Assembly: GCF_050920415.1 (NCBI RefSeq)
Contig: NZ_CP169309.1
Strand: one strand, 5' to 3'
DNA length: 64,000 bases
Origin: Escherichia coli
GTDB taxonomy: Bacteria; Pseudomonadota; Gammaproteobacteria; Enterobacterales; Enterobacteriaceae
Numbering within the stretch: position 1 is the stretch's first letter; each line of letters starts with the position of its first letter. The notes under the pieces are model-generated. The model saw only the letters and a list, made by a program, of their open reading frames with translations. It ran no database searches and was not told where the DNA came from. Shown in pieces: positions 47,699 through 56,554 of the stretch. The translations under genes and the position numbers were made by a program.

Positions 47699-49309
47699 TC
47701 AATGTTTCACAATATACATAGTCCGGCTATACGCCACATCTTCCGGGTTATTAATGGGATAACCTTTCAGCCACGGCTTGATTAATCGTCCATTGGTATA
47801 TTGATAAATTGGTGCAATCGGTGCTTGCTCCATGAGGATTTTTTCTGCCGCATTGTAATCGGCATTACGCGCTTTAACGGTATTTTCCGTCGATGCCTGG
47901 GCCAAAACTTTGTCGTAGGCCGGGTTGTTAAAGCGTGAAATGTTGCCTGAATGCGTTGACGTTAATAATGTCAGGAAGGTGGAGGGTTCATTATAATCCC
48001 CCACCCACGAGGCGCGGATAACATCAAAATTACCTGTATTACGACTATCGATATAGGTTTTCCATTCCTGATTTTGCAGTTTGACATCTACACCAAGGTT
48101 CTTTTTCCACATCGATGCCACAGCAATCGCAATTTTTTGATGGTTTTCTGAAGTATTATACAAAAGCGTCAGCTTCAGCGGTTTTTGCGGACCATAACCG
48201 GCTGCGCTCAACAAAGTTTTTGCCTGCGCATTCAGTTCTTCCTGACTCATTTGTTCAAACGGCGAAGGCTCCGGCGTGAATCCGGCAGTAACATCTGGCG
48301 TAAAATGCCACGCTGGTTTTTCGCCCGTCCCCAACACTTTTTCGGTCATCAGGCGGCGATCTATCGTCATACTTAATGCCAGACGAACGCGCTGATCTGC
48401 CGTCGGCCCTTTTTGCGTGTTAAACGCATAATAATAGGTTCCGAGCTGCGGCGGTGTATAAACCTGCCCCGGAATATCCTTCAACAGCTTCTGATACATA
48501 TTTTTGGGGAAGGATTCGGTGATATCAATATCCCCCGCGAGATAACGCTTAGTGGCTGCGGATTCCTGATTAATTGGCAGGAAGGTCACTTTTTGCAACA
48601 CCGTTTTGGCGTTATCCCAATAATGGGTATTTGGCACCACGACCAGTTTTTCATTGACTACACGCTCTTTAAGAACATAAGCGCCATTGCCGACCAGATT
48701 TCCGGGTTTCGTCCACTCTTTCCCGCTTTCTACGTTAGCTTTTTGCACCGGGAAGAAGGCAAAATTGGCTGTTAAATTCACAAACCACGGCAACGGTTTA
48801 TCAAGCTGGATTTTCAAAGTACGGGCATCAACCGCGGTGACGCCTAGCTGATCAGGCGTAGCTTTACCATCAATAATCGCCTGTGCGTTGTTGATTCCCG
48901 CCAGCGCGGCAAACCAGGCAAACGGCGACAACGTTTTTGGGTCAACCAGACGTTGCCAGCTGTAGACAAAATCCTGTGCCGTTACCGGTGTGCCATCCGC
49001 CCATTTTGCGTTATCGCGCAGGGTGAAAGTCCAGATACGGTTGTCATTACTTTTCCACTGAGTCGCAACGCCGGGGACAATCTCCCCTTTCTCGTTCTGA
49101 TTCACCAGTCCTTCAAAAAGATCGCGAATGACCTGAATCTCTGGCAGACCCACGGCTTTAGCGGGATCCAGCGACGCAGGCTCATCTTTAATATGGCGCA
49201 CCAGCTCCTGCTTCTCTGCCAGTACTGTGCCGCTCGGAACTTCTGCAGCATACGAAAGAGACATTATGCAAAGTGGCAAAAACGATATATAAATCATGAT
49301 TTTATTCAT
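47699..49309 (-). CDS. mppA: periplasmic murein tripeptide-binding protein MppA, with an AT-rich, apparently replaced 5' end
   Basis: OppA-family SBP sequence; start taken at MNKIMIYISFLPLCIMSLSYA/AEV signal peptide (ATG at 49309); the first ~20 codons and upstream DNA are AT-rich, unlike the rest of the gene. Confidence 0.85.
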   Translation of the reverse strand: MNKIMIYISFLPLCIMSLSYAAEVPSGTVLAEKQELVRHIKDEPASLDPAKAVGLPEIQVIRDLFEGLVNQNEKGEIVPGVATQWKSNDNRIWTFTLRDNAKWADGTPVTAQDFVYSWQRLVDPKTLSPFAWFAALAGINNAQAIIDGKATPDQLGVTAVDARTLKIQLDKPLPWFVNLTANFAFFPVQKANVESGKEWTKPGNLVGNGAYVLKERVVNEKLVVVPNTHYWDNAKTVLQKVTFLPINQESAATKRYLAGDIDITESFPKNMYQKLLKDIPGQVYTPPQLGTYYYAFNTQKGPTADQRVRLALSMTIDRRLMTEKVLGTGEKPAWHFTPDVTAGFTPEPSPFEQMSQEELNAQAKTLLSAAGYGPQKPLKLTLLYNTSENHQKIAIAVASMWKKNLGVDVKLQNQEWKTYIDSRNTGNFDVIRASWVGDYNEPSTFLTLLTSTHSGNISRFNNPAYDKVLAQASTENTVKARNADYNAAEKILMEQAPIAPIYQYTNGRLIKPWLKGYPINNPEDVAYSRTMYIVKH

Positions 49310-49352
49310 ATATTTTTTAACCTTAAAATAATATGGTACACACAATGGTACA

Positions 49353-49380
49353 CAAAAAGAAACGAGGCGTTAGCCTCGTT
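49353..49380 (-). terminator. intrinsic terminator downstream of the prophage tail-fibre gene
   Basis: AACGAGGC-gtta-GCCTCGTT hairpin followed on the minus strand by TCTTTTTGTG. Confidence 0.6.
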
Positions 49381-49409
49381 TCGCGGCGATGTTCTTCGCA
49401 CATCACCTC

Positions 49410-51782
49410 TTATTCTTCGCTTCCGGTCAACTGCTTAACAAGCGCAACCAGTTCGCTAACCTGATTTTCAAGATTGGTGATACGTTCATCCATGACAGTA
49501 ATGTTAGCACGTAAGCTGGCGTTTTCTTCTTCCAGTGCTGTAGCTTTCAACATTAAGGATTGTGTAACGTGCATTGTATCGAGCAATAAAGGCGTAGTAT
49601 CAAGCTCTTTCACCTCTATTTCTTTGTTGTTATTATCATAATGTGTTCTTGTTTTTACATATAACGGATCTATTAGTTCGGCTGATTGTGAAATAATGCC
49701 ACGCCGCACTCTTTCTTTTTCATCACCATTGAATACGAATGTTACGAAATCAAGGTTTTCTAAATTGCTCCACGCTTTATCTACGGTAGCGTGCTGCACA
49801 TTATGCTTAAATCTAATATCAGATATTGCATTTTTAGTAACCGTTGAGGTTTCTGTTACGGAATAATTATCCCATTTGGTAAAGTAAATGTTTGAATCAA
49901 ACGGGGCAATTTCAAGTCTTACTCCGTATTTGTTATCACTATCACCAACGCAGTTTAATGAAGTCCTAGCAAAACTAGTGGTATTGTGATGAATTAAACC
50001 GAGACTATACCAAGTCGCATACCCCGCTGAGGATGCTTGCCCTGCACTAAAATTGGAATTAAACGACCAGTTTTCACCTATATTAGTGTAAGGTACAACG
50101 AATGTTGCGCCGTGCGTTGGGATCTCACCCCAACTTAAAAGTTTTTGCGTTGTAGCCCTAAATGATGCTGATTCAAAAAGCCCGCTATCATTTACCGTAA
50201 TTCTCCCCTTGTTCCCTGATGTTTTATTTTCAACTTCAATAACTGCATAGTGGGATTGATCGATATACGCATCACCCCACATCGACACTTCGCATTCTGA
50301 GGCGTCACCGATCTTGTATACGGATTTTACAACACCTGTAGTTGATTTTGTTCCGGTTGATAGCCTTGTTTTGTCGGCGTTAATTACGCTCCAGGATGTA
50401 TTTGCAGCGGTAAAGCCACCAGATGCACGGATCACCCATACACCAACAAAGTTTCGTGTAAGAATTTCATCTGTTGATGCTCCATAAATCGGGCTACACC
50501 GTGACGCATCAAAAGTACATGTATTATAACGGCCTTCCAAAGCGGTTGTACCGCTAGGAATTGCATCACCTACACCGTCAGGAAATACACTGTTATCGGA
50601 GGAAAATGCACCATAAGATGTGCCAATGGCTTGCGCGTAACTCCCACCGGAATAAGTGGTAAAATAACCAGTAATATTTGGCGCGGCTGATTCAAATAGT
50701 TGTCCGTTTGCACTACTAACGCCACCATCACCTCGACCATAAAGCGCTCTGATCGATCCTTCTTGTATACCGTTTTTATCGGGAACGCGGAAAGTTGTTT
50801 CTCCGTCACCCGTGGAATATTTACCGCGTTGGAATTTATCAGCCAGCCATTCAGAATCATCTATAGCGCCCACCATTTGAGCGTAAGCCCACAATTCAGG
50901 CCAATCTGCACGGTTAAGTAATTGCCCGTCCGATGTAACCTCATAAGGCTGAATATAAGCGCGGCTATCGCGTAAGTGGAAATCCCCTACGCCGTAATTC
51001 ATAACACCGTTCATTGTTGGTCCGACTGTACCACTATTGATATAGTTCATTACCCAACGCATTGTTACAGCGTCGTAATCACTTACCGGATCGCCTGCTA
51101 ATGGCGTTGAACCTATTGGGCGAACGTTCAACCAGGCCGCCGCTCGGTCGGCAAGATCGGAAAGGTTATTTTGTATTCTTAGAAATGAATCCGGGTTTAT
51201 GTCGTTTTTGTACCCTTCCGCTATGTTTTTATATTCTTCGGCGTTAGCGGCGCTTTCTGCTGCGTTTACTGCCGCCCCTGTTGCGGTAACAGCCCCTTCT
51301 TCTGCTGTTTGTGCTGCTGCTTCTGCTGCTGCTTTAGATGATTCGGCGTCTGTTTTGTATTGCTGAGTTGTCGCTTTATCTGCGCTTACTTGCGCTGAGT
51401 CCGTGTGAACTTGGTTAACTAGTGCTATCAATCCATCAAGATCAAATTCCTGAAAAAATTCAACTGCGTTTGCAATTTCGGTTTCCTTGCCCTGATAGTA
51501 ACGCAGAGTTTCAGCAACATCTTGCGCTAAACCATCTACAGAAATCGAGTCTGAAAGCAGAATACTGAATTTTGTCCCGGCAGATATTGCAGGGTCGGCC
51601 GCAGGAGTTACTGATAATTCAGTTCCGCTCTTAATTTCGGTGATGGTAAATATCTGCACAGGATCGCTAACTGCAATCAGCGTGCACCCTTCCCGGATGA
51701 GCGAAAGCGGCGCGGTGAAGCTTGTCCCCAAGCCTGTAACAGTGTTACCACTAATAGCTATTGTTCCTGTTGTATAAATCAT
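49410..51782 (-). CDS. phage tail fibre protein with tail-collar domain and C-terminal peptidase-S74-like intramolecular chaperone
   Basis: 790 aa; Stf-like N-terminus; collar-domain motif (DWPELWAYAQ...GDGETTFRVPDKNG); C-terminal SDIRFKHNV motif followed by coiled coil, typical of autoproteolytic chaperone domains. Confidence 0.8.
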   Translation of the reverse strand: MIYTTGTIAISGNTVTGLGTSFTAPLSLIREGCTLIAVSDPVQIFTITEIKSGTELSVTPAADPAISAGTKFSILLSDSISVDGLAQDVAETLRYYQGKETEIANAVEFFQEFDLDGLIALVNQVHTDSAQVSADKATTQQYKTDAESSKAAAEAAAQTAEEGAVTATGAAVNAAESAANAEEYKNIAEGYKNDINPDSFLRIQNNLSDLADRAAAWLNVRPIGSTPLAGDPVSDYDAVTMRWVMNYINSGTVGPTMNGVMNYGVGDFHLRDSRAYIQPYEVTSDGQLLNRADWPELWAYAQMVGAIDDSEWLADKFQRGKYSTGDGETTFRVPDKNGIQEGSIRALYGRGDGGVSSANGQLFESAAPNITGYFTTYSGGSYAQAIGTSYGAFSSDNSVFPDGVGDAIPSGTTALEGRYNTCTFDASRCSPIYGASTDEILTRNFVGVWVIRASGGFTAANTSWSVINADKTRLSTGTKSTTGVVKSVYKIGDASECEVSMWGDAYIDQSHYAVIEVENKTSGNKGRITVNDSGLFESASFRATTQKLLSWGEIPTHGATFVVPYTNIGENWSFNSNFSAGQASSAGYATWYSLGLIHHNTTSFARTSLNCVGDSDNKYGVRLEIAPFDSNIYFTKWDNYSVTETSTVTKNAISDIRFKHNVQHATVDKAWSNLENLDFVTFVFNGDEKERVRRGIISQSAELIDPLYVKTRTHYDNNNKEIEVKELDTTPLLLDTMHVTQSLMLKATALEEENASLRANITVMDERITNLENQVSELVALVKQLTGSEE

Positions 51783-51941
51783 CTCAACAACTCCATAATG
51801 TTAACTTATGTGTCAATTCTACCATTTTGCGATCTGTGTTACATTTCTGTCTTATACAAAATGTATTTGTTGATTTACATCAATGTTGTGAAAATGCGGT
51901 TTGTGGATACTACAACCAACGAAACAACGGAGGGTAAGACA

Positions 51942-52181
51942 ATGAAAGGCTTAAAAAATATCGCTATCGCTGCAATGGTTGCTGGTCTGGTTGGTTGTGC
52001 TGATATGCCGAAACGTGAATGCACGGCAATTTATCAAACTGGCGGTAATGAGTATGCGGTTGCAGTCTTCGGTGTCGCGGATGTTGGTGGTCACAAAATG
52101 GCTAAGGCTGGGTATCCATTTAATTTTCAATGGGTGAGCGTTGACCACTTCAAGAAAACGGATTGCCCGGAATTGAATTAA
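51942..52181 (+). CDS. phage lipoprotein, possible Cor-like superinfection-exclusion protein
   Basis: 79 aa from ATG at 51942 with SD GGAGGG; lipobox LVGC; opposite-strand gene at the distal end of the tail module, where cor sits in N15/phi80-like phages; family assignment is inference. Confidence 0.5.
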   Translation: MKGLKNIAIAAMVAGLVGCADMPKRECTAIYQTGGNEYAVAVFGVADVGGHKMAKAGYPFNFQWVSVDHFKKTDCPELN

Positions 52182-52771
52182 TCATAGGCGTCGGTTTTAA
52201 TGGCGGTGATAGCGTTCCCGTGGTTAATATAGCCAGTTGGTGCATATACGCTACCCGCCTGGATGCCGTAAATTCTAGTTGTGCTTCCGTTGTAATAAGC
52301 CGCCGCATAAATGGATGCACTACCCTGTCCAACGAGCGCCCCTAACAATTGGGGGCAAATAGCATAAGAACCGGATAACGTTTGGTCTATATAAATTCCG
52401 CCGCTTGATCCTGCCGTCCCAACGGTTACAAGGTCTGTTAATATTCTTGATTCATTAGTTAGCACTAGTTCCCCGGAAGCGTTCCAAATAGCCATTCCCC
52501 ACTTCGGCAGCGATGGCGGGAAAATAGTGAAAATATACGCATACCCCGAACCAGCCCCGATTAGTAAAGTTGATGGGCTATTTCTATAAGCTAATACAGC
52601 GGCGGCGGTAGTGCTTTTTACAAATACCATCACGGGCTTCCCGGATGGCACGGCGACGGTTTGATTCGATGATGTTAATGTCACCCGTTCATATAAGCAA
52701 AGCGGCGTTGCTTCCGGTGTAACGAAAATATTCCCGTTACTTAATCTCAAATAAGCTCCGAAGGTTGCCAT
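52178..52771 (-). CDS. phage protein (197 aa) downstream of J, N-terminus MATFG
   Basis: ORF whose stop overlaps the next gene; shares the N-terminal MATFG with the adjacent 103 aa ORF; Gly/Ser/Thr-rich. Confidence 0.6.
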   Translation of the reverse strand: MATFGAYLRLSNGNIFVTPEATPLCLYERVTLTSSNQTVAVPSGKPVMVFVKSTTAAAVLAYRNSPSTLLIGAGSGYAYIFTIFPPSLPKWGMAIWNASGELVLTNESRILTDLVTVGTAGSSGGIYIDQTLSGSYAICPQLLGALVGQGSASIYAAAYYNGSTTRIYGIQAGSVYAPTGYINHGNAITAIKTDAYD

Positions 52772-53082
52772 TAAGCCACCTCCGCAAATATAACAATTTC
52801 ACACTGTGACGCGGGCCATATATTAGCGCCTACCGTATCCCCTGCCGAGGAAATGGAAACAGTACCACCCGAAATAGTGATCTTTCTGCGCGTCGTTGAC
52901 GTTGTGCCATAATCAAGCGTCATCCCATAAGATAATTTGCATCCGGTCGGCACTGTAAAGGTATATGTGCCGGATACCTGCCCGGATGATAAGGAAATAT
53001 AACCAACCACAACGGAAGGTTTAATTCCATAGTTATTAGCATTGCCGCTGGCGTCCCAGGTCGCTACGCCGAAAGTAGCCAT
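52771..53082 (-). CDS. phage protein (103 aa) downstream of J, N-terminus MATFG
   Basis: ORF immediately after J with SD (GGAGG); Gly/Ser/Thr-rich beta-type composition. Confidence 0.6.
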   Translation of the reverse strand: MATFGVATWDASGNANNYGIKPSVVVGYISLSSGQVSGTYTFTVPTGCKLSYGMTLDYGTTSTTRRKITISGGTVSISSAGDTVGANIWPASQCEIVIFAEVA

Positions 53083-53134: not shown

Positions 53135-56100
53135 CTACCATGATCCGGTAATTCGCCCAATCTGGACGCGCAAAACCCCGTTACCGTCTTTTACCGAAAT
53201 AGTGGTATTAGTTAATTTCATCGCGCCCTCACCACTCACCGCGCCGTAGTTTTCGAATGTCCCGCCTTTATCCAGTTTCCATCCGGTACTGCCGGAAACA
53301 TAGTTATTTGACTGGATGTAAGAACCTATTTTCGCGTTGGTGATTGAGGCGTCTTTTATAAATGCTTCGCGAACATACATAGCGCCGTTTTCAACATAAA
53401 ATGGTGTCGTATATGTGCCGTTGGCGGCTGTCATTAATACGAAGCGGTCAACAAGAAAAATACATTGTGATTGCGTATTTGCGCCATCACCAGTTACCCC
53501 AAGCGATATTCCTGACGCGTATTTCATACCGTTGTTATCAGTAGCGATCTTGAGACTCCAAGTTGCCGACATATCACCATTAATATTGGTAATTGCTGTT
53601 TTGTTTTCCTCAATAAGCACTGATTGCCCATTAATTGATGCGGTTACTTCGCTAATTTGCTGCGCGGTTGCTTTTTCAAGCGTAACCATTGCTTGTTCAA
53701 GGTTTGTGACCTTCCCTTGAATATCATCACTTATTTTTGCTTCAAGCTCTGATAATGCTTTTGCTGTTGCCTCTTTTTCCGTTGCGACAACTTCATCTAT
53801 ACGCGTGATCTCTGCTTTTGATTGTTTCAACTGAGCGGAAAGTGTGCGTCTTGATGTTGTTTGAGCTACGGAATTATTAAGAAGCGCAATGGAAACGTTT
53901 TGCAAGCGGGCGCGAGTTTGTGTTAGTTCGCTATCCTGTTCCGAAAGCTCGACACCTATTTCGTCAATACGACTTTCATGAACCCCTAACCCCTCTTCGT
54001 TATTCTGGACGCGATTAATTAGATCTGATGTGGTATCCTTCAGATCGGTAACATCCCCTTTAAGTGTGCTCGTGTCACTAATCAACCCTTGAAATTGCTC
54101 GCTTTCCATGACTTCTTTCGTCACGAAATCTGTAATTTCGTCGAAGTCCTCCGTAGGCTTCCCGGATGCCTCAATAAAATCTGACACACCGAACGCGTTG
54201 CGGGTGCGAATGTACACATAATACATGTGGCCTGTGCTCATGCCGCCGAACGTCCATTGATAACCACGTCCGGTATACTGCGCTGACGTGGTTATGGTTG
54301 CCGGATCCGTAATCCTGTTTTCTCCGGCGTAATAAAATTCATATGCCGTATCAGTGGTGAGTGTTGTTTTGCTTATCGGGTAGACAGTAGCCTGAAATAC
54401 ACCAGGCACCCAATTTACACCGACAGGCGCGGATGGCGCTCCAATCACCAGATCGACGATGCTTTCTGCACCCTTCATGCCAGTGTCATTTCTGCCGCGA
54501 ACACCTAACGTGTATGAACCAGCATCAATGCCATAAAAATCATAACTGTATTTCGTGGTTTCATAGCTTTTAACCACCGCACCATCTGCATTGTATATGC
54601 GGATCTCGAATGTCATGCGATGAGTGGTAGTCTGTGTCTCCCACGTTGCGCGGCATTGAACTGTTTCCGATCCAATGTTTACTACCTTCAGATTTTCGAT
54701 GTTCGGCACACGGAAGTGATTAAGCGTGTCGCTGTTGATTTCGAAGATTGCGCCTTCATCGACTACGGCTTGTTTGTTAGGGTCGTGCTGCGCGGCTTCG
54801 ATAGTGTATACGCTGTTATTTTGTGTTTCTGCTACGCTGGTGATCCTACACAAAACTGGTTTTGCTGCGTTAGTTGATACAGCAAAAACAGTGCCATTTC
54901 GAATCCATGTTGGGGCCGCAGCAAGGGTGATATTGTTTCCGTTAACTCCGGTGATCTGGTGTTTTTTAAATTTGCCATCGCTATCAAGAAGGCTTATTGT
55001 GTCGCCAGCGGTCACATATTCAGAATCAACCTTATCTACAGTGATCACACGTCCATTGTTAGAGACAATACGACCGCCTAAGCGAGCGCCAGCACGGTTA
55101 TTGTCGAGTATCTCGATGATATCACCTGGCGTAAAGTGAATCGCGTCACGGGCCATTTTAAACGTGAATTTTGAAGGCTCGCGCTTCGCTGTTTCTATCA
55201 GCCATTTACCCGCCCGGTGCGCTTGCCCGCGTGATGTACACCCGAAAGCCTCCAGCGTGGTTTCGTTGTAGCCGTCACGGGCGATTAGTTCATCATCTGC
55301 GACATACTCTTTTGATTGTTCCCAGCCGTTTTCCGGATCAGTCCATGACACAATTACCGCGTTGTAGCATTCTGATCGCGCGATACTTGAACGGGTAAAT
55401 GCACCATCCACGACGTTTGCGTTAGTGATGGTTGCGATTGGGTCTTGTGGTGCATCAATCATTATAGTAAGGCGCTGACCATCCCATAACGCTATACCAC
55501 GGAACATCCCGGCGATGTTGTCCAGTAGGTCGCGGGCGCTCATTTGCTCTGTGATGTACGCGTTTAGCGTGACGCGCGGCTCTAAGCCACCATAGCCATC
55601 ATCAACCAACTGATCGCAGTATTGAGAGAGCGTATACAAAGCACCATCATCAACATCGATATAACCAGCCTGTCGAGCAAGGCCAAAACGCTCGTTTTTA
55701 ACCAAGTAGCGGAATATCCACGCCGGGTTATTTGTGTATGCCTTTTTAAGTCCGCCAAGCCATAAACCGGAATAATTTCGTTTTTCCGGGTCGTAGTTAT
55801 CCGGTACATCGACAATCAGCCCACGCAGATGATAAGTGCGTGTAGGTGTATCGGAGTACTGGTCATGGTCAATTACCGCGCCAGCTACAGCAGTGTGAGG
55901 ATAAGACAAGTTATCGTCGATGATTTCGCTATAACTGTTCCAGCGGGTATCGTTCTGTAATAGGTCGCTTACACTATCAGCCGTCACGCGGCGCACGCGA
56001 ATATCAAATGGCTTTTCATCCGGCGCATCAATGATATGAGACTCCAGATATTCACCGCTAATCTTACCCGGACCGATTTGTACGGCCTTAACCGCCGACC

Positions 56101-56554
56101 AGGTGGAAGACGAGGACGGTTTAACATCGATTGCCATAATGACAGACGTTTCTTTCTGGTTTGATTGGTTATCGCTTTCCACCAGTGAATCCACGCCAAT
56201 ATTTAGCCGGACGCGCGTCACGTTCGGATCTGATACCGTCCTGACCAGTGGCGTATCATGCTTTACCTGTGCGTTAACCATCACCGTTGATTCAATGGCG
56301 TTAAAGCCGTTGATCGGTGACTGGTCGGCAGTACCCGGACGCCAGGCGACACTAACGCCTGGAATGCTGGTATTACCTACCGCATCCGTAACAGGAGTGT
56401 CATTAAGCATTACGCAGTTTAACGGCGCGGCAGTATTGACAGGCCCATAAATCGGCCCTTCGCTCAATATATCAAGCACGCGATAAAACTGCTTATGGAA
56501 CAAGTTATCGTTTATTAATGTTGGTGTTTTTGCTTTACCACCGCCGCCGCCCAT
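53135..56554 (-). CDS. phage tail tip / host-specificity protein J
   Basis: 1139 aa (lambda J is 1132 aa); position after I; fibronectin-III-like central region. Confidence 0.9.
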   Translation of the reverse strand: MGGGGGKAKTPTLINDNLFHKQFYRVLDILSEGPIYGPVNTAAPLNCVMLNDTPVTDAVGNTSIPGVSVAWRPGTADQSPINGFNAIESTVMVNAQVKHDTPLVRTVSDPNVTRVRLNIGVDSLVESDNQSNQKETSVIMAIDVKPSSSSTWSAVKAVQIGPGKISGEYLESHIIDAPDEKPFDIRVRRVTADSVSDLLQNDTRWNSYSEIIDDNLSYPHTAVAGAVIDHDQYSDTPTRTYHLRGLIVDVPDNYDPEKRNYSGLWLGGLKKAYTNNPAWIFRYLVKNERFGLARQAGYIDVDDGALYTLSQYCDQLVDDGYGGLEPRVTLNAYITEQMSARDLLDNIAGMFRGIALWDGQRLTIMIDAPQDPIATITNANVVDGAFTRSSIARSECYNAVIVSWTDPENGWEQSKEYVADDELIARDGYNETTLEAFGCTSRGQAHRAGKWLIETAKREPSKFTFKMARDAIHFTPGDIIEILDNNRAGARLGGRIVSNNGRVITVDKVDSEYVTAGDTISLLDSDGKFKKHQITGVNGNNITLAAAPTWIRNGTVFAVSTNAAKPVLCRITSVAETQNNSVYTIEAAQHDPNKQAVVDEGAIFEINSDTLNHFRVPNIENLKVVNIGSETVQCRATWETQTTTHRMTFEIRIYNADGAVVKSYETTKYSYDFYGIDAGSYTLGVRGRNDTGMKGAESIVDLVIGAPSAPVGVNWVPGVFQATVYPISKTTLTTDTAYEFYYAGENRITDPATITTSAQYTGRGYQWTFGGMSTGHMYYVYIRTRNAFGVSDFIEASGKPTEDFDEITDFVTKEVMESEQFQGLISDTSTLKGDVTDLKDTTSDLINRVQNNEEGLGVHESRIDEIGVELSEQDSELTQTRARLQNVSIALLNNSVAQTTSRRTLSAQLKQSKAEITRIDEVVATEKEATAKALSELEAKISDDIQGKVTNLEQAMVTLEKATAQQISEVTASINGQSVLIEENKTAITNINGDMSATWSLKIATDNNGMKYASGISLGVTGDGANTQSQCIFLVDRFVLMTAANGTYTTPFYVENGAMYVREAFIKDASITNAKIGSYIQSNNYVSGSTGWKLDKGGTFENYGAVSGEGAMKLTNTTISVKDGNGVLRVQIGRITGSW

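Follow-up and report, generated by a model that had tools for sequence, protein, structure and literature searches.

An intact side tail-fibre gene with modules common to T1-like and T5-like phages in an HK022-like Escherichia coli prophage

The fibre gene and its neighbours

The stretch of Escherichia coli DNA analysed here (64,000 nucleotides of contig NZ_CP169309.1, hereafter the window) covers only the tail end of a prophage. A complete lateral tail-fibre gene lies on the minus strand at 49410..51782, as the first-pass annotation had proposed, and a sequence check found every string quoted there in its place. The reading frame opens with an ATG, with an RBS-like GGAG sitting 8 nt 5' of it, and encodes a 790 aa precursor of 85.4 kDa that is identical to a protein held by NCBI (WP_432780747.1, 'tail fiber domain-containing protein [Escherichia coli]'). 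As judged by sequence comparison, its membership of the fibre family is far above chance, since it matches PHROG tail-fibre families with E 1e-188 and LtfA of phage DT57C (PDB 8HQZ_d) with E 1.5e-130, and has 2,699 database homologues at E<=1e-20; an NCBIfam search of the protein returned no informative family.

Right 3' of the stop codon is an intrinsic terminator hairpin (49359..49382, minus strand; 10-bp stem with 6 GC pairs, then a T-run), contained in a 40 bp stretch (49346–49385) that is 100% identical to mEp515, whose fibre gene likewise has an annotated terminator 3' of it. Identity to prophage-free E. coli stops at ~49262, the prophage/host junction inside mppA, and the first ~16 codons of mppA are replaced by prophage-supplied sequence (49263..49309, minus strand); the LSU61 prophage, which occupies that site too, shares this replacement. 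The terminator, the att junction and mppA are all that lies within ~150 bp 3' of the fibre gene, where no tfa-like ORF was found, and a Pfam search of the neighbouring genes gave no match, so that none matches a tail-fibre assembly family; the earlier statement that there is no separate tfa-like gene therefore stands.

Just upstream of the fibre gene is cor, encoding a superinfection-exclusion lipoprotein (51942..52181, plus strand; PHROG 1119; NCBIfam lamb_exclu_cor, 52.3 bits against a cut-off of 31), which occupies the equivalent position in HK022 and UMNK88. A gpJ-type central tail fibre, presumed to bind the terminal receptor, is encoded at 53135..56554 (minus strand; Pfam J domains and Phage_Tail_Tip), and its C-terminal 249 aa are ~50% identical to HK022 J. 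J, cor and the small ORFs beside the fibre gene are intact, and the order J, two small ORFs, cor, fibre, att/int is the same in the window, HK022 and UMNK88. Related fibre alleles adjoin abgT or int. The gene at 49410..51782 is an intact side tail-fibre gene; the E. coli prophage that carries it is HK022-like, and its modules are common to T1-like and T5-like phages.

Modules of the fibre protein

The N-terminal anchor (aa 1–115, 51438..51782, minus strand) is by its similarities common to HK022, T1-like phages and the depolymerases of Klebsiella Webervirus. It is 85% identical to mEp515, 55% to HK022 (aa 1–96), 42% to T1 and 97–99% to the LSU61 allele, and in a PDB sequence search aa 3–168 matched the N-termini of the depolymerases 7LZJ, 7VYV and 7VZ3 with E 1e-33. 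This region had been described as typical of lambdoid side tail fibres, which is correct for the HK022 group but not for lambda Stf: homology to the latter was rejected because Pfam gave no match to the Stf N-terminal domain (PF08400) even at E 10, and BLASTP against lambda Stf (orf-401) had a best E of 14. In two related fibres, P0042 and P0048, an Stf N-terminus is fused to the same distal module, which emphasises that the anchor in the window is a different one. The anchor is followed by an Ala/Glu-rich shaft (aa 116–204, 51171..51437, minus strand), predicted to be alpha-helical (AF2 helices at 115–194, low confidence), which has low occupancy and high entropy in the alignment, relatives differing in shaft length.

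Homology to the LtfA/LtfB-type fibres of T5-like phages starts at a conserved neck (aa 205–255, NNLSDLADRAAAWLNVRPIGSTPLAGDP..., 51018..51170, minus strand; entropy 0.3–0.5 bits), where the DT57C LtfA alignment runs from residue 535. Next comes a collar-like domain (aa 256–465, 50388..51017, minus strand), assigned by homology, the counterpart of what is called 'Gp12-like RBD1' in T-shaped fibres. The tail-collar motif reported at first pass is indeed present within it, at aa 293–342 (DWPELWAYAQMVGAID at aa 293–308, 50859–50906; GDGETTFRVPDKNGIQEG at aa 325–342, 50757–50810; both minus strand), but the accompanying Pfam signal (Collar, PF07484) does not reach the gathering score of 24, with 15.9 bits for the whole protein, 19.1–19.7 bits for sub-fragments and an alignment covering profile positions 38–53 of 57 only. 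A weak match of this kind was seen in all 22 family members tested, every one sub-threshold (best E 2.5e-4). Similarity of the domain to T4 gp12 was not detected, either by hhalign (probability 0.7%) or by Smith-Waterman comparison (score 42, shuffles 36.5 +/- 6.1), and a profile of the domain searched against PDB sequences found 8HQZ_d as its sole match. AF2 monomer models are poor over RBD1 (pLDDT 30–75), and a collar-only monomer model built from the 22-sequence alignment (pLDDT 51.7) had no Foldseek match; collar-like domains are probably intertwined trimers, beyond the reach of a monomer model.

Within the collar-like domain lies a block of hypervariable loops (VR1, aa 361–435, 50478..50702, minus strand; entropy 1.5–2.4 bits) that is 23–60% identical to P0002 and P0003, while the flanks on either side are at least 90% identical to the window allele. 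The domain has 83–93% aa identity and 83% DNA identity to the T5-like phage C13, and it is missing from a natural deletion variant, P0004. The collar region, which has hypervariable loops of its own, probably serves as a receptor-binding domain in its own right, because it is colinear with LtfA/LtfB and with the T-shaped fibres described as having an RBD1 and an RBD2; these homologous fibres have been described as Gp12-like RBD1, T5-like RBD2 and chaperone, targeting O-antigen (PMC11990801).

The distal tip (aa 466–653, 49824..50387, minus strand) is predicted to be beta-rich, with AF2 strands at pLDDT 72–91, and its 'T5-like RBD2' character is known only from the published structure prediction of homologues (PMC11990801). 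It holds the second variable region (aa 466–645, entropy 1.3–2.0 bits). The host-range determinant had been placed between collar and chaperone, and there is variability there, but the variable region inside the collar-like domain (aa 361–435) had been missed. The RBD2 allele is rare: its closest match among 50,697 phage records has 43% aa identity, 5,426 complete E. coli genomes contain nothing that matches it at the DNA level, and only P0001–P0004 are at least 90% identical. Transfer of specificity from the nearest RBD2 relatives was rejected, as identity to any phage with a characterised host is <=43%. A fold search with the AF2 models gave no meaningful match for either RBD.

The C-terminus (aa 654–790, 15.7 kDa, 49413..49823, minus strand) is an intramolecular chaperone of the Peptidase_S74 type, as had been recognised from its motif and coiled coil. 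Here the Pfam match is above the curated threshold, in contrast to that for the collar (PF13884, 32.8 bits against a cut-off of 22, E 8.5e-8, aa 654–706). The motif ISDIRFKHNV (aa 653–662, 49797–49826, minus strand) contains the putative catalytic dyad of Ser654 (49821–49823) and Lys659 (49806–49808), both invariant (SDIRFK) in 117 aligned homologues and spaced as Ser1264 and Lys1269 of T5 (PMC4690869). Cleavage is predicted at Ile653|Ser654, giving products of 69.7 and 15.7 kDa. The predicted fold resembles solved chaperone domains with a coiled-coil helix at the end, in this case a long one (aa 729–786, 49425..49598, minus strand; AF2 pLDDT 81–91) with coiled-coil similarity to P22 gp26, which includes the string LENQVSELVALVKQL (aa 771–785, 49428–49472, minus strand) and from which one heptad is deleted in P0001. 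The last ~30–35 aa are a prophage-type extension that T5-like homologues lack, and this tail also occurs in LSU61, P0007 and P0024, whose fibres are otherwise unrelated.

Mosaicism and relation to known fibres

The description of the gene as a mosaic is borne out by identity profiles and modular homologies. From aa ~200 to 761 the fibre is colinear with T5-like, Wifcevirus and other fibres at 54–67% identity, and aa 117–758 align with residues 448–1073 of DT57C LtfA (E 1e-127 for the stretch), while DNA matches to the LSU61 allele are found at both ends of the gene (49000–49498 and 51453–51832). Entropy across the family alignment peaks at aa 361–435 and aa 466–645, which suggests these as two candidate, independently variable receptor-binding regions. 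The difference between the window allele and P0002/P0003 is essentially confined to RBD1, and on such comparisons the RBD1 loops and RBD2 are exchanged independently of each other. We infer that the gene has evolved by exchange of cassettes between conserved ends, which comprise ~110 codons at the start of the gene and, at its other end, ~30 codons together with the terminator. No genome among 5,426 complete E. coli sequences covers the locus to at least 80%, and the fibre adds a rare allele to a type that had been described before; the system is not new in kind.

The T-shaped fibres of the BASEL phages (IrisVonRoten Bas32 Gp24, the Wifcevirus phages Bas98-101 including ManiWeber Gp114, and Gordonclarkvirinae AnnaHegner Gp10; PMC11990801) share with it a colinear region at aa ~200–761 (54–56% identity), the order neck, collar-like RBD1, tip RBD2 and S74 chaperone, and two RBDs that are both variable and exchanged horizontally. 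They dock through a proximal fibre in Tequintavirus and Gordonclarkvirinae and through a myovirus baseplate anchor in Wifcevirus. In the window, by contrast, a temperate lambdoid prophage carries the module on a coiled-coil shaft with an HK022/T1-type anchor, the chaperone has the ~30-aa prophage-type coiled-coil extension, and RBD2 is <=43% identical to any of theirs. LtfA and LtfB of DT57C/DT571-2 are similar in that their specificity region is C-terminal and a pfam13884 site of autocleavage is predicted in them, and they recognise O-antigen as needed to penetrate the O-antigen shield (PMC4728585). However, LtfA has at its N-terminus a T5 pb1-type lasso, which sits in the LtfC collar, and LtfB a phiEco32 gp15-like docking peptide, and the window has neither a second fibre gene nor the branched arrangement of DT57C. 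PDB 8HQZ was rejected as a template for the shared region, since the LtfA N-terminus alone is resolved in it (PMC10713586).

HK022 has the same locus order and anchor, an S-x-x-x-x-K S74-type chaperone at the fibre end and no tfa, and in both phages the fibre gene is the last late gene before att/int; its fibre is, however, only ~365–381 aa long with a short single distal part, in place of which the window fibre has a 450-aa dual-domain T5-like module. T5 pb1 (4UW7/4UW8, PMC4690869) has a comparable Ser/Lys (+5) dyad, ~135-residue chaperone and central trimeric coiled coil, and its chaperone-masked tip binds O-antigen; PDB searches found no sequence match between it and the window fibre. Lambda Stf/Tfa is a functional analogue, a side fibre downstream of J that speeds adsorption, but Stf lacks an S74 domain and needs the separate Tfa chaperone.

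Proposed function and alternatives

We think it quite probable that the gene encodes a lateral fibre built of four modules, cleaved by its S74 domain and binding a glycan, and that the fibre belongs to a lambdoid prophage that resembles HK022 and is integrated in the 5' end of mppA. In the scheme that we infer for cleavage, trimer shape and receptor alike, the anchor (aa 1–115) would presumably fix the fibre trimer to the tail tip, with the helical shaft (aa 116–204) linking it to the distal module (aa 205–653). Three chains would trimerise, nucleated by the chaperone coiled coil, and correct folding would place Lys659 to activate Ser654, so that the Ile653-Ser654 bond is cut, the 15.7-kDa chaperone is freed and a 69.7-kDa mature fibre remains; S74 self-chaperoning would therefore make a Tfa-type helper unnecessary. 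In T5 pb1, cleavage occurs at Thr1263-Ser1264 with the serine activated by Lys1269, and an uncleaved, chaperone-containing fragment failed to inhibit T5 adsorption; its authors suggest that the binding site becomes exposed on cleavage (PMC4690869). The mature fibre would then most probably bind a surface glycan reversibly, letting the J tip reach the terminal receptor, which is possibly FhuA, as suggested only by the adjacent cor and the 50% J match.

By analogy with studied homologues, the fibre ligand is most probably a surface glycan and most likely O-antigen. The C-terminal regions of DT57C LtfA and LtfB set O22-like, O87 and O81 specificity (PMC4728585), and IrisVonRoten, Bas98-101 and AnnaHegner, which depend on O16 or can infect cells that express it, have fibres for which AlphaFold-Multimer predicts a T-shape composed of a Gp12-like RBD1, a T5-like RBD2 and the chaperone (PMC11990801, PMC8594841). 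Another ligand (LPS core, capsule or an outer-membrane protein), or two RBDs serving two receptor classes, seems to us rather unlikely. T4 gp12, the prototype of Gp12-like domains, does bind LPS core, capsules have been named as possible targets of the BASEL fibres (PMC11990801) and the RBD2 allele is without a close characterised relative, but every experimentally studied homologue of the distal module depends on O-antigen or switches with its type (DT57C/DT571-2, PMC4728585; Bas32, PMC8594841; Bas98-101 and EP335, as cited in PMC11990801). It is distinctly unlikely that the protein is a lambda-Stf-type fibre in which the collar is purely structural and host range is set solely by one receptor-binding region lying between it and the chaperone. 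That model would account for the collar motif, for the weak Pfam match to Collar that every family member gives and for the variability of aa 466–645, the collar-to-chaperone interval, whose equivalent in DT57C LtfA was shown by genetics to switch host specificity (PMC4728585). Against it, lambda Stf homology is absent, the hypervariable block in the collar-like domain has been swapped alone in P0002/P0003 (proteins otherwise at least 90% identical), the collar-like domain is 83–93% like that of a T5-like phage, and the homologues are described as dual-RBD fibres (PMC11990801).

A relic of a defective prophage, yielding no functional fibre, would fit a window that holds only the tail end of the prophage and an allele so rare that 0 of 5,426 complete E. 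coli genomes cover at least 80% of its locus; we regard this as very unlikely, given a full-length ORF with all family-invariant residues, catalytic dyad included, an RBS-like GGAG, its own terminator, and intact J, cor and small ORFs nearby. An enzymatic tailspike is suggested by the anchor, common to Klebsiella capsule depolymerases (aa 3–168 match 7LZJ/7VYV/7VZ3, E 1e-33), but is hardly credible: the similarity ends at aa ~168, Pfam finds no beta-helix, pectate-lyase or other enzymatic domain, and the remainder is homologous to non-enzymatic fibres. We rejected the depolymerase reading, as the similarity to the Klebsiella enzymes is limited to the anchor.

The RBD1 loops are common to a virulent T5-like phage (83–93% aa identity), whereas RBD2 and chaperone are common only to the prophage alleles P0001–P0004. 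We tentatively raise the possibility that the fibre is a dual-RBD adhesin which nature has dissected in a temperate phage. Should its two domains read two different glycans, the phage would have a two-key or alternative-key primary receptor system and a previously unseen specificity. Current understanding of how such fibres work is unchanged, and the value of the analysis is in annotation and host-range prediction. Where a prophage gene is annotated simply as 'tail fiber domain-containing protein', its anchor, its shaft, RBD1 and RBD2, and its chaperone can be told apart, which shows the segments to compare when predicting reachable O-types. The dual-RBD type of the virulent BASEL phages is also present in HK022-like temperate phages, the groups being linked by sub-domain exchange. 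The window allele, P0002/P0003 (another RBD1), P0004 (no RBD1) and LSU61 (another whole cassette) form an allelic series for testing specificity.

An HK022-type tail-fibre locus in mppA

The fibre gene (790 codons, minus strand, 49410..51782 in the window's ORF list, with GGAG 8 nt 5' of its ATG) is a new, rare allele of an architecture already described; its setting, an HK022-like temperate phage, is new as well. The same protein sequence is in NCBI under accession WP_432780747.1 ("tail fiber domain-containing protein [Escherichia coli]"), the nearest 90%-cluster relative (P0001, a homologue from the database search) is 94% identical, and coverage of the locus stayed below 80% in all 5,426 complete E. 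coli genomes. Upstream lie a gpJ homologue, a 103-aa ORF (52771-53082, minus strand), a 197-aa ORF (52178-52771, minus strand) and, separating the tail genes from the fibre, the superinfection-exclusion lipoprotein gene cor (51942-52181, plus strand). Phage HK022 likewise has J, a 100-aa ORF, a 212-aa ORF, cor, fibre and int in order, and its fibre has the same type of N-terminus and an S74-type end; the window locus is thus an HK022-type tail-fibre locus. Among related alleles, abgT adjoins the fibre in UMNK88 and P0002, and the P0004 fibre gene directly precedes integrase.

A terminator hairpin with a 10-bp stem (49359-49382) lies 3' of the fibre stop codon, and at lower coordinates follow the host genes mppA, ynaI, ynaJ, uspE, fnr and ogt. 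The match to prophage-free E. coli ends at ~49262, within mppA and ~150 bp beyond the fibre, which is therefore the last prophage gene. The first-pass annotation had reported no separate tfa-like assembly gene, and indeed the gap holds only the terminator and the mppA junction with its substitute 5' end; lack of tfa is a trait of the entire HK022-type locus group.

The prophage sits in the 5' end of mppA (49262-49345), where phage sequence replaces the promoter region and the signal-peptide n/h-region: the first ~16 codons are phage-supplied, MNKIMIYISFLPLCIM replacing the usual signal-peptide start, although the signal-peptidase site between ...SLSYA and AEVPS is retained. The identical replacement occurs at the same site in the E. 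coli O157:H7 prophage LSU61. The 197- and 103-aa ORFs, immediately after J, both start MATFG and have no Pfam match, their sole matches being the vaguely named PHROG 425 and 557. They are kept in HK022 (212 and 100 aa) and UMNK88, in both of which, as here, cor overlaps the end of the longer ORF by 4 nt. Since LSU61 and phage mEp515 carry other genes at this position despite a fibre anchor identical in type, a role as assembly factors specific to that anchor is improbable for both ORFs.

Anchor and chaperone

The N-terminus had been called Stf-like, a reading we reject: a Pfam search of the fibre gave no match to the Stf N-terminal domain PF08400, and BLASTP against lambda orf-401 gave E 14. 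It is instead an HK022/T1-type anchor. Residues 1-132 match 901 phage records, with identities of 85% in mEp515, ~55% in HK022, HK140 and mEp213, and 42-51% in T1-like phages and Webervirus, and aa 3-168 match the N-termini of the Klebsiella Webervirus depolymerases 7LZJ/7VYV (E 1e-33). In two homologues, P0042 and P0048, PF08400 is fused to the same distal module as in the window fibre.

The opposite end is, as first annotated, an S74-type chaperone, predicted to be self-cleaving, with a coiled coil (the helix at aa 729-786), and the peptide strings quoted in that annotation were all found, essentially where it placed them. Peptidase_S74 matches aa 654-706 above the Pfam threshold, and Ser654 and Lys659 are invariant among 117 aligned homologues. 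T5 pb1 is cut at Thr1263-Ser1264, with Lys1269 activating the serine, and its chaperone has a trimeric coiled coil at its centre (PMC4690869). From the same +5 Ser/Lys spacing, cleavage is predicted between Ile653 and Ser654, with expected products of 69.7 kDa (mature fibre) and 15.7 kDa (chaperone). A pb1 fragment still carrying its chaperone had no inhibitory effect on T5 adsorption; cleavage, in that study's proposal, exposes the receptor-binding site (PMC4690869).

The last ~30 residues of the terminal helix overhang the ends of T5-like homologues and are common to LSU61, P0007 and P0024, prophage fibres otherwise unrelated in receptor-binding and chaperone sequence. Within aa 756-790 (49413-49517) alleles differ in the length of the coiled coil by exactly one heptad, P0001, P0002 and P0003 having ...ERITKLEALV... 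and the window, P0004 and LSU61 ...ERITNLENQVSELVALV... The coiled-coil tail and terminator form a conserved 3' recombination anchor. The 3' part of the gene lies in a local GC minimum (0.41 at 49001-50000; 0.45-0.50 in neighbouring kilobases).

A mosaic of exchanged modules

Identity profiles and entropy blocks bear out the earlier description of the fibre as mosaic. Conserved scaffolds (aa 211-360 and 451-465) are set against two variable blocks, one within the collar-like domain (aa 361-435) and one in the tip (aa 466-645). The region between collar and chaperone had been named as the likely host-range determinant; the variable tip agrees with this, but the assignment is incomplete, as the block inside the collar-like domain varies too. 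P0002 and P0003 are mostly at least 90% identical to the window protein (73% at aa 1-30, 83-87% in stretches of the shaft), with a drop to 23-60% at aa ~301-450. The T5-like phage "C13", by contrast, is 83-93% identical in protein and 83% in DNA over aa 211-450, and only 27-57% identical in tip and chaperone. The LSU61 fibre, at the same mppA site, has an unrelated centre between ends that are 97-99% identical (aa 1-90 and the last ~35 aa), and shares DNA flanks at 49000-49498 and 51453-51832. For the distal-tip (RBD2) allele, no phage relative exceeds 43% aa identity, and complete E. coli genomes gave no DNA match.

P0004 (locus L010, 4001-5770) lacks aa ~257-460 in frame, with TVGPTMNG joined to NTSWSVIN, which points to the collar-like domain as a separable side module; this variant comes from a single Logan assembly, on a phage-like contig, and may be an assembly artefact. 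The collar call itself is below threshold. The GDG-TTF-VPD-NG motif aligns with Pfam Collar, but only over profile positions 38-53 and at 15.9 bits (cut-off 24), and 22 of 22 family members tested match equally weakly. A family profile of the domain found only 8HQZ_d (DT57C LtfA) in the PDB, hhalign against T4 gp12 gave a probability of 0.7% with a pairwise score inside the shuffle range, and the domain-only AF2 model was too poor for a fold search. The label is plausible through the literature on homologues.

Relatives described as T-shaped and a proposed mode of action

DT57C LtfA, from a T5-like phage, aligns over its residues 448-1073 with fibre aa 117-758 (E 1e-127 for that stretch), and T5-like phage fibres (~580 aa), Wifcevirus Bas98-101 fibres (~780 aa) and others are 54-67% identical over aa ~200-761. 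Genetic evidence from DT57C and DT571/2 places O22-like versus O87 specificity in the LtfA C-terminal regions; O81 specificity is ascribed to LtfB, and pfam13884 is present in all these proteins (PMC4728585). For the same homologues the 2025 BASEL paper uses the term "T-shaped" and describes a Gp12-like RBD1 and a T5-like RBD2 together with the chaperone (PMC11990801), and they have been linked to O16 O-antigen dependence (PMC11990801; Bas32: PMC8594841). As PDB 8HQZ resolves LtfA at its N-terminus only (PMC10713586), the region shared with our fibre is without a solved structure.

In the proposed mechanism, the chaperone would drive trimer folding and then cut itself off. One or both receptor-binding domains of the mature fibre would attach to a glycan on the host surface, with an O-antigen as the likeliest candidate, giving the J tip access to its terminal receptor. 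FhuA is hinted at as this receptor by the neighbouring cor gene and by J, a 50% match to its HK022 counterpart.

DT57C LtfA (locus L004, 3478-6708) has two collar-like copies (~aa 294-517 and 580-810), the first in the proposed LtfB docking region, so such domains may serve as docking platforms besides binding. The records MG065692.1 ('Campylobacter phage C13', 99.9 kb) and OR848352.1 ('Listeria phage LM 4-14-1') contain T5-like coliphage fibre genes, and the hosts named in them look like the result of mislabelling or contamination.
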